This document shows positions 9,526 to 17,733 of a stretch of 40,826 bases of DNA, piece by piece. The stretch covers positions 1-40,826 of the forward strand of contig JBDTZG010000048.1 of assembly GCA_040005235.1 (NCBI GenBank), in the 5' to 3' direction. Origin of the DNA: Acidobacteriota bacterium (GTDB lineage: Bacteria > Acidobacteriota > Thermoanaerobaculia > Multivoradales > UBA5704). Within the stretch, counting starts at the first letter, position 1. Every line of letters begins with the position of its first letter. The position numbers were made by a program, and so were the translations under genes. Under the pieces are notes generated by a model, which saw only the letters and a program-made list of their open reading frames with translations, did no database searches and was not told the DNA's origin.

Positions 9526-11061
9526 ATGAGCGGAACGCAAAACGAGAGCGGTGCGATCGGAGCTAGAAGTGGCCAGACTGCCGGATTTTCGGCCGGTCTG
9601 GCCGATTTAGATGTCACGGATCCGGTCGACCACCGCGCCCCGCTGATCCTCGGCGCCCCGACTTTCCACGCCATCACCGAGGTGGTGGCACGACCCCTCG
9701 AACGAAAGCCCACCCGTGGCTGGTGGATCTGCTTTCTCACTTCGGTTGCGATGGTCGGCGTGCTCGGCGTCTCGATCGGCTGGCTGTTCTTTGAAGGAAT
9801 CGGCGTCTGGGGCCTGAACAATCCCGTCGGCTGGGCGTTCGACATCACCAATTTCGTCTTCTGGGTCGGCATCGGTCACGCCGGCACGCTGATCTCGGCG
9901 ATCCTCTTCCTGTTCCGCCAGAAGTGGCGCACTTCGATCAACCGCTCCGCGGAGGCGATGACTCTGTTCGCCGTCATGTGCGCGCTGATCTTCCCCGGCA
10001 TTCACATCGGGCGGCCGTGGGTCGCCTATTGGATGTTCCCGATCCCGAACCAGATGGGCATGTGGCCGCAGTTCCGCAGCCCGCTCATGTGGGACGTCTT
10101 CGCGGTCTCGATCTACGGTTCGGTCTCGGCGCTGTTCTGGTTCGTCGGCCTGGTGCCGGACTTGGCGACGATCCGCGACCGCTCGACCGGCATCCGCAGA
10201 AAGATCTTCGGCGCCTTGGCGCTCGGCTGGCGCGGCTCGATGCGCCACTGGCAGCACTATGAGAAGGCGTACCTGATCCTCGCCGGTTTGGCGACGCCGC
10301 TGGTGCTCTCGGTCCACTCGATCGTTTCGATGGACTTCGCCACTTCCCAGCTGCCCGGCTGGCACACGACGATCTTTCCGCCCTACTTCGTAGCCGGCGC
10401 GATCTTCTCGGGCTTCGCAATGGTCGTGACCCTGATGGTGATCACCCGCAAGGCGTTCGGCCTCGAAGAGATCATCACCATGAAGCACTTCGACTACATG
10501 GCGAAGATCATGCTGCTCACCGGCATGATGGTCGGTTACGCCTACAGCCTGGAGTTCTTCATCGCCTGGTTCTCGGGCAGCGCCTACGAGCTGTTCACGT
10601 TCAAGAACCGGGCGTTCGGCCCCTACGCCTGGGCCTACTGGACGATGGTCTCGTGCAACGTGCTGTCGCCTCAGCTGTTCTGGTTCAAGAAGGTGCGAAG
10701 CTCGCTGGTGTGGCTGTTCGTGCTCTCGATCTTCGTCAACATCGGTATGTGGTTCGAGCGCTTCGTGATCATCGTCACCTCGCTCCACCGCGACTTCCTG
10801 CCGTCGTCCTGGTTCTACTTCCGGCCGACGCTGTTCGACGTCTCGACCATGATCGGCAGCTTCGGCCTGTTCTTCATGATGTTCTGCCTGTTCGTGCGCT
10901 TCCTGCCGGTGGTGGCCACCGCCGAGGTGAAGACGGTGTTGCCGCAGGCCGCGGCGCATCCGCCGAACCCGCCGGTCATCCAGTTCGACGAGCAAGGCGG
11001 GCGCGACGCCGCCGGCGCGGCCGAGGGTCGCCTTGGCCTCGCTCCGGGAGGCGCCGTCTGA
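9526..11061 (+). CDS. actC: Alternative complex III subunit C (NrfD/PsrC family quinol-binding membrane subunit)
   Basis: [69 protein letters not shown]; start may be 9493. Confidence 0.93.
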
Positions 11062-11618
11062 TGGGTCTTCTCCGTCCGAGCCTGCCGCCCGGTGACCGCT
11101 TCGGCGCCCTGGCCGAGTTCGCCGATCCCGCCGAGCTGTACCACGCCTGCGAAGCGGTTCGCGATGCCGGCTACACGAAGTGGGACGCCCATACGCCGTT
11201 CCCCATTCATGGCTTGGACCGGGCGATGGGCCTCAAGGCCTCGAAGCTTCCCTGGGTGGTGCTGATCATGGCCCTCGGCGGCGCGCTCGCCGGGATCGGC
11301 CTTCAGGGGTGGGTGAGCACGACCGCCTATCCGCTGGTGATCAGCGGCAAGCCATTCTTCAGTTGGCCGGCGTTCGTGCCGATCACCTTCGAGCTTTCCA
11401 TCCTGGGTGGCGCCTTGGGCGCGGTATTCGGGATGTTCGCGATGAACCAGCTGCCGACCTTGTACCACCCGCTGTTTGGGAAGACGAGCTTCGAGCGGGC
11501 GAGCGACGACGGGTTCTTCCTCTCGATCGAATCGTGGGATCCGAAATTCGACCCCGACCGCACCGTGGAGATGCTGCGCCAACTAGGGGCCAAAGAGGTC
11601 GAGCTGGTCTCAAGCTAG
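11061..11618 (+). CDS. actD: Alternative complex III subunit D (DUF3341)
   Basis: AEF.DP..L.HA...VRDAGY...DAHTPFP.HGLD.A.G, SGKPFFSWPAFVPITFEL; TGATG coupling to actC. Confidence 0.92.
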   Translation: MGLLRPSLPPGDRFGALAEFADPAELYHACEAVRDAGYTKWDAHTPFPIHGLDRAMGLKASKLPWVVLIMALGGALAGIGLQGWVSTTAYPLVISGKPFFSWPAFVPITFELSILGGALGAVFGMFAMNQLPTLYHPLFGKTSFERASDDGFFLSIESWDPKFDPDRTVEMLRQLGAKEVELVSS

Positions 11619-11630
11619 CGAAATGTCCCG

Positions 11631-16451: not shown

Positions 16452-16649
16452 ATGAACCTCAAAAGCTTCCACGTCGTCTTCATCGCCTGCGCGACCGCCC
16501 TCGCCTTTCTGTTCGGCGCCTGGGCTTTGGGCAGCCAGGTGTTTGCCGGGACGCTGCGACTCGTCGCCGCTTGGGGCTCTTTTGCCGTCGGCGCGGCCCT
16601 GATCGGCTATGAGACCTGGTTCCTGCGCTACTCGCGGGGTCAGCAATGA
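16452..16649 (+). CDS. Small two-TM membrane protein
   Basis: GGAGG RBS; M.LK.FH.VFI; ATGA overlap with next gene. Confidence 0.8.
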   Translation: MNLKSFHVVFIACATALAFLFGAWALGSQVFAGTLRLVAAWGSFAVGAALIGYETWFLRYSRGQQ

Positions 16650-16936
16650 CCAGCTTGCTGCGGCGCTCCGGTTGGGCGGGCGTGATGATCTGGACGGTCG
16701 CTGCGCTCTGGGCGGCACCGGCCGCCGCGTGCAGCGTCTGCTACGGCGACAGCACGAACGCCTCGCCGCTGATTACGTCCGCGAAGTTGGGGGTTCTGCT
16801 GCTACTCGGCTTCACCGTCGCCATGCTCGGCGGCTTTGCCAGATTCTTCTTCTATCTGCGTAACCGTGCGCGCCAGGCCGAGAGCGAAAACATCGCCGCG
16901 GAGTGGGCGCAACTGCAACGGAGTGCCTCGACATGA
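16646..16936 (+). CDS. Small exported, membrane-anchored CxxC protein
   Basis: Signal-like N-terminus, AAA-CSVCYG, one TM helix; ATGA overlaps at both ends. Confidence 0.8.
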   Translation: MTSLLRRSGWAGVMIWTVAALWAAPAAACSVCYGDSTNASPLITSAKLGVLLLLGFTVAMLGGFARFFFYLRNRARQAESENIAAEWAQLQRSAST

Positions 16937-17733
16937 ACAGGTGGCTTCCCCCGGTGGCCTCTGCGCACGGACCGCAGATCGACAGCGCCCTCACGTGGGT
17001 GCATTGGCTGATGGCGATTCTTTTCGTCGGCTGGATCATCTTCTTCGTGGTCGCCCTCTGGCGCTTTCGGCGTTCGCGCAATCCGGTGGCGAGCTACACG
17101 GGTGCGACGACCAACGCGTCGACCTGGCTCGAAGGAGCCGTGGCCGTCGCCGAAGGCATTCTGCTGATCGGAGTGGCGATTCCGCTCTGGGCTGCCCGCA
17201 CCTCCGAGTTTCCCGATAAAAAGGACGCCGTCGAGGTTCGCGTAGTGGGCGAGCAGTTCGCCTGGAACATCCACTATCCCGGTCCGGACGGCCTATTCGG
17301 AAAGACCTCGATCGCCAAGATCGACATCGAGAGCAATCCGCTGGGACTCGACCGCACCGATCCCGCAGCGCAGGACGACGTGACGACGATCAACCAGCTG
17401 CACTTACCCCTAGGCAAGCCGGTGATCGTCTATCTCTCCAGCAAGGACGTGATCCACAGCTTCAACCTGCCCGAAATGCGGATCAAGCAGGACGCCGTTC
17501 CAGGAATCGTCATCCCTATCTGGTGGGAGCCCACGGTCACCACCGCCCAGATGCGCGAGAAGCTCGGCAAGCCCGAGTTCGTCTACGAGATCGCCTGCGC
17601 CCAGCTCTGCGGCCTGGGCCACTACCGGATGCGCGGTTTCGTCACCATCGACGAGCCGGCCGAGTATCAGAAGTGGATGGACGAACAGGTCGCGGCGCAG
17701 AAGGGTACGGGCGAGGACGATATCTTCAACTAG
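16933..17733 (+). CDS. coxB: Cytochrome c oxidase subunit II (CuA)
   Basis: Two TM helices, QFAW.I.YPG, S.DVIHSF, KQDAVPG, CAQLCGLGHYRM; no cytochrome c fusion. Confidence 0.95.
   Translation: MNRWLPPVASAHGPQIDSALTWVHWLMAILFVGWIIFFVVALWRFRRSRNPVASYTGATTNASTWLEGAVAVAEGILLIGVAIPLWAARTSEFPDKKDAVEVRVVGEQFAWNIHYPGPDGLFGKTSIAKIDIESNPLGLDRTDPAAQDDVTTINQLHLPLGKPVIVYLSSKDVIHSFNLPEMRIKQDAVPGIVIPIWWEPTVTTAQMREKLGKPEFVYEIACAQLCGLGHYRMRGFVTIDEPAEYQKWMDEQVAAQKGTGEDDIFN

Follow-up and report, generated by a model that had tools for sequence, protein, structure and literature searches.

The stretch of DNA analysed here (the window) is a whole contig (C4) of 40.8 kb from an acidobacterium of the class Thermoanaerobaculia, whose genome (G000; 6.2 Mb, 100% complete) is a metagenome-type assembly of 140 contigs. 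On its + strand the window carries an operon which joins three subunit genes of alternative complex III (ACIII) to a small copper protein and a terminal oxidase. According to a listing of open reading frames (ORFs) and to searches of Pfam and NCBIfam, the genes stand in the order rne, actC, actD, actF, cup (for an amicyanin-like cupredoxin), coxI-III-IV, two small genes (sm1 and sm2) and coxII. In the following we will refer to the three act genes as actC2, actD2 and actF2, as distinct from the canonical act genes of the same genome. actC2 (from 9493 with a TTG start, or 9526 with ATG, to 11061) encodes the NrfD-like, putatively quinol-binding membrane subunit (Pfam NrfD, E 8e-24) and is 55% identical to the canonical ActC. 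Its stop codon is overlapped by one base by the ATG of actD2 (11061-11618), the product of which matches PF11821 (ActD, E 7e-65) and shares 49% identity with the canonical ActD, NCBIfam giving no family for it. actF2 (11631-12863) encodes a second NrfD-like membrane subunit, which is 43% identical over 405 aa to the canonical ActF, weakly resembles ActC and matches no Pfam or NCBIfam family above cut-off. A preliminary description of this locus had noted that actC directly follows rne and that actF begins 12 bp after actD; both observations hold, the former as a gap of 127 bp that holds neither actA nor actB, the latter with coordinates (11618/11631) in agreement.

The oxidase genes comprise coxI (13717-15501; Pfam COX1, E 6e-138), coxIII (15511-16101; COX3, E 9e-22), coxIV (16109-16438; COX4_pro, E 1e-10, and TIGR02229 above cut-off) and coxII (16903-17733; Pfam COX2, and TIGR02866 at E 7e-36, below cut-off), all on the + strand. 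CoxI is an A-family haem-copper oxidase subunit and reaches E 9e-176 and 585 bits against TIGR02891, which is under the cut-off of 670.75 bits. CoxII shows a complete CuA site, with an upstream His followed by C-A-Q-L-C-G-L-G-H-Y-R-M, and no cytochrome c domain. The same holds for window-type CoxII proteins in general, in which C-x3-C-x3-H-x2-M is present and CxxCH absent (15/15), unlike the canonical CoxII encoded on contig C35 of the genome, which has one CxxCH. Judged by its sequence, the window oxidase is an aa3-type A-family haem-copper oxidase with subunits I-IV and CuA. Assignment to the caa3 type was ruled out, no cytochrome c domain being fused to CoxII.

The gene between actF2 and coxI (12935-13651, +) codes for an exported protein of 238 aa with a signal peptide, a cupredoxin domain and a C-terminal CarboxypepD_reg-like beta-sandwich. 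Pfam sees just the beta-sandwich, below cut-off, and NCBIfam returns no family, its only match (0.0098) being at chance level. When 22 homologues were combined into a profile, it matched amicyanin along the entire cupredoxin domain (E 2e-6), with L-H-N-V-H aligned to the H-N-V-H, and C-D-V-H-x-W-M to the C-T-x-H-P-F-M, of amicyanin. The putative copper ligands H128, C166, H169 and M172 are unchanged in all 22 sequences, and C-x2-H-x2-M occurs in 18 of 19 locus-derived homologues, the exception being truncated by the end of its locus. Searched with Foldseek, an AF2 model of the protein (pLDDT 89.6, pTM 0.83) retrieves amicyanin, pseudoazurin, plastocyanin and Cupredoxin_1 (E 1e-4 to 3e-6; TM on target 0.57-0.74). 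The earlier designation as a blue-copper-type protein with a cupredoxin motif is thereby borne out as to predicted fold and ligands. The protein shares with amicyanin (PDB 1aac, 1sf3 and others) the cupredoxin fold and the ligand pattern H-N...C-x2-H-x2-M, but identity is only about 20%, an N-terminal segment with a conserved Cys pair and the C-terminal CarboxypepD_reg-like domain are added, and there is no methylamine dehydrogenase context here. Its family is large, with more than 2800 homologues in the protein collection searched, many of which bear the label 'plastocyanin' at JGI or, in metagenome-assembled genomes (MAGs) of Thermoanaerobaculia, 'carboxypeptidase regulatory-like' at NCBI.

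Among the loci of relatives, nine have the upstream flank of a window-type coxI in view (L007, L010, L012, L013, L018, L063, L072, L082 and L091), and in all nine the cupredoxin gene stands immediately 5' of coxI; four of them (L018, L063, L082 and L091) have no adjoining actCDF. The cupredoxin, then, travels with the oxidase rather than with ACIII. The preliminary description had seen it in place of ActA/B/E, which does not agree with this distribution. Because of the constant adjacency to coxI, and because CoxII has CuA without a CxxCH, the protein probably replaces the cytochrome c domain that is absent from CoxII, and not ActA/B/E. A blue-copper protein that takes the place of cytochrome c in front of CuA is familiar from archaeal oxidases, for example the sulfocyanin SoxE of SoxM or the halocyanin associated with ba3. 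As in the window, the archaeal cupredoxin is encoded with the terminal oxidase and is the presumed link between a quinol-oxidising module and CuA; the archaeal systems differ in belonging to another lineage and in having a Rieske/cytochrome b partner, not ACIII. Prediction of a complex between residues 27-238 of the cupredoxin and the periplasmic residues 100-270 of CoxII, both given as alignments, scored 0.13, 0.32 and 0.12, which counts neither way.

The electron-transfer subunits ActA, ActB and ActE are all missing from the window operon. None of the ten ORFs, CoxII included, contains C..CH, C...CH, C....CH or C..CK, and C..CH is absent from all six frames of 9400-17800, as the preliminary description had stated for the operon. 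From this it had proposed either a haem-c-free ACIII, forming an undescribed module that leads from quinol over a copper protein to CuA, or a split ACIII locus with an Fe-S partner encoded elsewhere. An operon without haem-c motifs does not imply a haem-free complex, because partner genes can lie elsewhere, and such genes are indeed present, solely in trans, on contig C35. PF11821 and NrfD have two matches each in the genome, in the window and on C35, and a tblastn search of the whole genome with reference proteins returns each of ActA, ActB, ActC, ActD, ActE and ActF exactly twice. The first set is contiguous on C35, in the order actA, actB, actC, actD, actE, actF, sco, coxII (with a cytochrome c domain), coxI, coxIII, coxIV; its ActA has five CxxCH motifs, its ActB (1066 aa) is an Fe-S protein and its ActE has one CxxCH. 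The ActB search revealed a second full-length ActB on the same contig at 24.7-27.8 kb, and the second set consists of actA2-actB2-actE2 on C35 (24.1-28.5 kb) and actC2-actD2-actF2 in the window. ActA2 again has five CxxCH motifs, ActB2 has 4Fe-4S domains, and ActE2, with one CxxCH, is 46% identical to ActE; no NrfD, ActD or ActF is encoded alongside this trio. The haem-c-free headline is therefore not supported, since an actA-actB-actE set lacking actC/D/F of its own exists elsewhere at the genomic level, whereas the split locus is supported, and so is an Fe-S partner encoded elsewhere, namely by actB2.

The partner operon (L006; G000:C35:16831-28488, - strand) comprises actA2, actB2 and actE2, followed by genes for a bd-like protein of 622 aa, two monohaem cytochromes c, a dihaem EB_dh cytochrome and a Usp/PCP_red protein. 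The bd-like protein matches Pfam Cyt_bd_oxida_I (E 7e-27) over profile positions 2-240 of 418 only, and its gene is flanked by four c-cytochrome genes. Besides two haem-copper oxidases, the genome has a single canonical cydA (C83:48835-49812) and a single bd-like gene. Because PF00033 finds no cytochrome b in this 100%-complete genome, ACIII appears to be the only evident quinol route to both haem-copper oxidases and the only complex-III-type enzyme. Next to the partner operon on C35 are the haem synthesis genes hemH and hemY as well as sco, ctaB and ctaA.

As the window makes up an entire contig of a metagenome-type assembly in 140 pieces, the absence of actA and actB could in theory reflect their loss at a misjoined rne-actC junction, or the actCDF genes could be decaying relics. 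Logan contigs of three runs bridge both critical junctions: across 9365-9526 these are record 1 of X1 and record 17 of X2, with 0 differences, and record 25 of X3, with 55 differences; across 11618-11631 they are record 8 of X1, record 23 of X2 and record 31 of X3. X1 and X2 may be source samples, while X3 belongs to an independent study. The order rne-actC-actD-actF-cup-cox is found again in G149, a genome of the same genus, and the order from actC onward also in the single-contig genomes G025 and G029. Misassembly is excluded, because bridging contigs exist and gene order is kept in G149 and the single-contig genomes. Against a remnant speak the unbroken reading frames of all the genes and the retention of invariant residues, so that artefact and decay together deserve hardly any credence.

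To place the two halves in an evolutionary context, 23 loci from genomes of the same class were annotated by blastp against three loci of the genome itself. The arrangement actCDF-cup-coxI-III-IV-(sm)-coxII without actAB occurs also in G149, G005, G025 and G029, and the operon actA-actB-actE-bd-like-cytochromes-usp also in G149, G005 and G025. Other relatives keep the halves together. G074, G138 and G021 have one contiguous operon actA-B-C-D-E-F, in which A and B (and E in 2/3) are closest to the orphan set of C35, and C, D and F to that of the window. G063 has an array actC-actD-actF-actA-actB, with window-type cup-cox genes divergent from it, and the end of this contig shares 102 exact bases with a contig that starts with actE-bd-like-cytochromes. 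In L072, sco-actC-D-F-cup-coxI is divergent from actA-B-E-bd-like. Finally, all four published genomes tested (G151, G152, G153 and G154) hold both halves in one supercluster, with window-type actC lying about 6.6 kb upstream of a coxII which faces, in convergent orientation, the ahbD end of the actA-B-E-bd-like operon. No genome with the actCDF-cup-cox operon but without actB was seen among those examined. G143, a candidate for an ActD-without-ActB genome, was rejected, its canonical operon being cut by the end of a 9368-bp contig. Two irregularities were observed in passing: in L072 (3153-4498), from a long-read MAG, window-type actC is divided between two frames, because of either a frame break or an assembly error in a homopolymer, and some ActB/ActC matches of relatives (e.g. 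in G137, G112, G014, G011 and G043) contain one in-frame TGA or TAG, which may be due to an overlap of adjoining frames, to a sequencing error or to recoding.

The same association is apparent from co-occurrence across the class, for which the tallies include the unpublished genomes G004, G104 and G135, none of them among the carriers. The bd-like gene is present in 25 of 151 class genomes, namely G000, G149, G005, all 21 genomes of genus g8 and G063. In 24 of these 25, G000 included, ActC is at least 70% identical to that of the window; the 25th is G063, the rearranged form, with an ActC of 64%. An adjacent actB is absent in G149, G005, G025 and G029 as judged by locus, and by coordinates in further g8 genomes, e.g. 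G133, G113, G145 and G081. ActC proteins in the 60-69% identity band, on the other hand, adjoin an ActB (three genomes by locus and 22 more by coordinates). In a tree of ActB (18 rows), sequences from loci with actA and actB only form a clade with G063 (100/99), which is sister (93/92) to those of the contiguous type-2 operons and lies apart from the canonical clade. A quick tree of ActC (21 rows) likewise has a clade of sequences from loci with actCDF only (SH-aLRT 98), in the same tree neighbourhood and with open forks around it, so that the two phylogenies of the orphan halves appear congruent. Both halves are also constrained: orphan ActC proteins keep 134-135 of the 135 columns that are invariant among 16 ActC proteins of complete operons (134/135 in the window), and orphan ActB proteins keep 130-132 of 132 such columns. 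Gene order in relatives, co-occurrence, congruent trees and retained invariant residues together indicate that the orphan actA-actB-actE of C35 is the evolutionary partner of actC/D/F in the window.

These results also bear on the possibility that the window operon is autonomous, with ActC2, ActD2 and ActF2 passing quinol electrons straight to the cupredoxin and CuA without ActA/B/E. Such a module would accord with an operon that has neither CxxCH nor an Fe-S protein, that has been kept whole, with no actAB, in G149, G005, G025 and G029, and that places a type-1 copper protein with intact ligands between actF and coxI. However, ActC has no redox cofactor, and all NrfD-type subunits so far described have an Fe-S partner (Calisto and Pereira 2021, PMC8076601); the 25/25 class genomes of this type also carry the phylogenetically partnered actAB-actE set without its own actCDF; ActC2 keeps 134/135 of the residues that are invariant in ActC proteins sitting under ActB; and the cupredoxin stays by coxI where actCDF is not nearby (L018, L063, L082 and L091). 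We regard an autonomous haem-c-free module as very improbable.

We consider it likely instead that the window holds the membrane/quinol module of a second, split ACIII, the ActA2/B2/E2 module of which is supplied in trans from C35. The six products of the second set would assemble into an ordinary ACIII, menaquinol being oxidised at ActC2 and electrons passing from the Fe-S clusters of ActB2 to the haems of ActA2 (pentahaem) and ActE2 (monohaem). From there electrons would take two branches, one over the amicyanin-like cupredoxin to CuA of the window aa3-type oxidase, the other over the neighbouring c-cytochromes to the bd-like (OR-N-like) oxidase. We infer this physical assembly, the electron path and the role of the cupredoxin as donor from genomic linkage, co-occurrence, trees and fold.

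Several observations weigh against a split complex of this kind. The halves are unlinked in G000, G149 and genus g8, so that their co-regulation is not a given. The tight linkage between ActA2-B2-E2 and the bd-like gene (50/80 loci, see below) could mean a separate complex of ActABE with the bd-like protein. In principle, the complete canonical ACIII could lend its ActABE to the window subunits. The ActC phylogeny is a quick tree with open forks, and in the unpublished genome G155 (L082) cup-cox is divergent from actA and beside actAB, actC being on another contig. As to the cupredoxin, its suggested donor role is drawn from position, predicted fold and the missing cytochrome c domain, and the genomes hold further paralogues: on C35 beside the canonical operon, a lipoprotein with a Pro/Thr-rich linker that is encoded divergently from the canonical actA (L005:4986-5834, - strand); on C83, a distant third copy (G000:C83:58252-58608); and in g8, a second copy upstream of and divergent from actC (L012:16753-17376 and L013:5441-6064).

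The bd-like cluster has a wider distribution than the split ACIII. Scanning one genome per species gave at least 597 bd-like loci, 80 of which were kept for analysis; they come from Acidobacteriota (Thermoanaerobaculia, Vicinamibacteria and Polarisedimenticolia), Rhodothermales, Myxococcota, Calditrichia, Fibrobacteria and others. The core of the cluster consists of the bd-like gene, two monohaem cytochromes, a cytochrome/EB_dh gene, in some cases an ahbD-like gene, and usp. In 50 of the 80 loci actB lies immediately upstream; in 17 at least 4.5 kb of upstream sequence holds no actB, and in 13 the upstream flank is too short to tell. Window-type cup or cox genes stand inside the locus in 19/80. 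In Rhodothermales the cluster comes after a complete ACIII-caa3 array (L097, L098 and L100) or after cup-coxI-III-IV-coxII (L090 and L091). The bd-like module, then, needs no ActAB of its own; in Acidobacteriota the ACIII electron-transfer genes are simply placed ahead of it. A side observation concerns L092, from a Myxococcota MAG, where the bd-like-cytochrome cluster is present twice, the two copies back to back and each accompanied by a distant homologue of the cupredoxin (30-32% identity) that has a C-D-x-H-D-F-M loop.

This survey touches on another conceivable arrangement, in which modules are swapped: ActC2/D2/F2 would work with ActA1/B1/E1 or in mixed complexes, and ActA2/B2/E2 would dock on the bd-like oxidase. 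The direct 5' position of actA-actB-actE before the bd-like gene in 50/80 loci is compatible with it, as are the unlinked halves in G000 and the availability of a full canonical set. Yet an ActB without an NrfD partner has no quinol route, the 17/80 bd-like loci with at least 4.5 kb of upstream sequence have no adjacent actAB, the orphan ActB and ActC phylogenies appear congruent, and G074, G138, G021 and G063 have the halves in one contiguous stretch. Module swapping is accordingly rated as unlikely, though less so than an autonomous window module. Somewhat less doubtful, but still no more than a tentative idea, is that a split ACIII of the kind proposed above acts as a switchable hub or megacomplex, its two halves being transcribed apart from each other, ActCDF together with a cupredoxin-fed aa3 oxidase and ActABE together with the bd-like oxidase and its cytochromes. 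If so, the route of quinol electrons would be set by the amounts of each half and oxidase, possibly with mixing with canonical ACIII halves.

Upstream, outside the system, the operon is flanked by rne (6753-9365, +), coding for RNase E/G (Pfam RNase_E_G, E 7e-95), which neighbours the operon in G149 as well. Two small genes between coxIV and coxII had been overlooked in the preliminary description. The ORF reading gives sm1 (16452-16649, +), for a small membrane protein of 65 aa that has homologues at the same position in G149 and L045 and no Pfam family. sm2 (16646-16936, +) encodes a small exported or membrane protein of 96 aa, in which a CxxC[YF]G motif is accompanied by a signal or anchor segment and by a membrane helix at the C-terminus; neither Pfam nor NCBIfam assigns a family to it, and the motif is kept in 9/9 homologues from the window-type oxidase operons of relatives. 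The protein may serve in the assembly of copper or CuA sites, or else be an additional subunit of the oxidase.

Downstream, on the - strand (17768-20967), three genes converge on coxII. These are a gene for an AhbD/NirJ-like radical SAM/SPASM protein with a C-terminal PCP_red domain (17768-19141), as judged from Pfam/NCBIfam and the loci of relatives, one for a small protein with a match to the PCP_red domain (19148-19642), and one for an Mrp/NUBPL-type iron-transfer (Fe-S carrier) P-loop NTPase (19639-20967; Pfam PF10609, E 5e-51). The ahbD-like gene forms in relatives the tail of the actAB-bd-like operon that converges on coxII, and in many phyla it ends the bd-like oxidase cluster, beside a Usp protein that also has PCP_red domains. 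This shared context of ahbD-like and Usp PCP_red proteins may be a sign that the bd-like oxidase has a maturation step of its own for a cofactor (haem?).

A scan of 9200-18000 for promoters and terminators gave 0 promoter-like and 6 terminator-like signals against 6.2 expected, and is uninformative on the operon limits. RNA contigs of run X12 match actC, the actD-actF span and cup at 90-95% likeness; they were rejected as expression of the window operon, as they stem from relatives, coverage is thin and DNA carry-over is possible.

According to Calisto and Pereira (2021, PMC8076601), NrfD-type subunits all have no cofactors and are paired with Fe-S subunits, and ActF has no quinone site. PMC3534657, citing Refojo 2010, distinguishes ActCDFG as membrane/quinone module from ActABE as electron-transfer module, a division that would apply here too. 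The ACIII-aa3/caa3 supercomplex of Flavobacterium johnsoniae and Rhodothermus marinus, cited in PMC8407424 and PMC8076601, has the same ActA-ActF families and act genes by an A-family oxidase, and ACIII-A2 caa3 'superoperons' are mentioned in PMC8407424 for Terriglobia. Unlike in F. johnsoniae and R. marinus, the two modules are divided here between two operons, the break falling precisely where one module ends and the other begins; moreover, the CoxII of the oxidase is devoid of a cytochrome c domain, and coxI is preceded by a cupredoxin gene.

In Chloroflexus and Roseiflexus (PMC7439408, PMC10873879), auracyanin is likewise a small blue-copper periplasmic acceptor of ACIII, but it works in photosynthetic cyclic flow, and the act operon is complete; compared with auracyanin, the copper protein here is amicyanin-like, has extra beta-sandwich parts and is encoded with the terminal oxidase. 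A parallel for the second half is that of Nitrospirales, for which PMC12342949 gives actABCDE, without actF, and then an OR-N5 bd-like oxidase. Shared with the present case are act genes directly 5' of a bd-like CydA, which here too may be without a quinol site and amid alternative donors, in keeping with what Murali, Gennis and Hemp (bioRxiv 10.1101/2021.01.16.426971) say of OR-N enzymes, namely that they have no quinol site and that their operons contain alternative electron donors. By contrast to Nitrospirales, actA-actB-actE alone precede the 622-aa bd-like gene here, and actCDF are with the haem-copper oxidase. Neither a split of ACIII by module nor an operon of actCDF, cupredoxin and oxidase is described in the literature searched.

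The split ACIII arrangement is conserved and fairly widespread: either the split layout or the linked supercluster recurs in Acidobacteriota, in Thermoanaerobaculia, Vicinamibacteria and Polarisedimenticolia. In the genome of this soil acidobacterium the genes of the complex are divided precisely where its two known functional modules meet, and the modules are linked to different terminal oxidases. This layout provides a natural system for the study of ACIII module assembly, of the choice of acceptor between cupredoxin and cytochrome c, and of the role of the uncharacterised bd-like oxidases.

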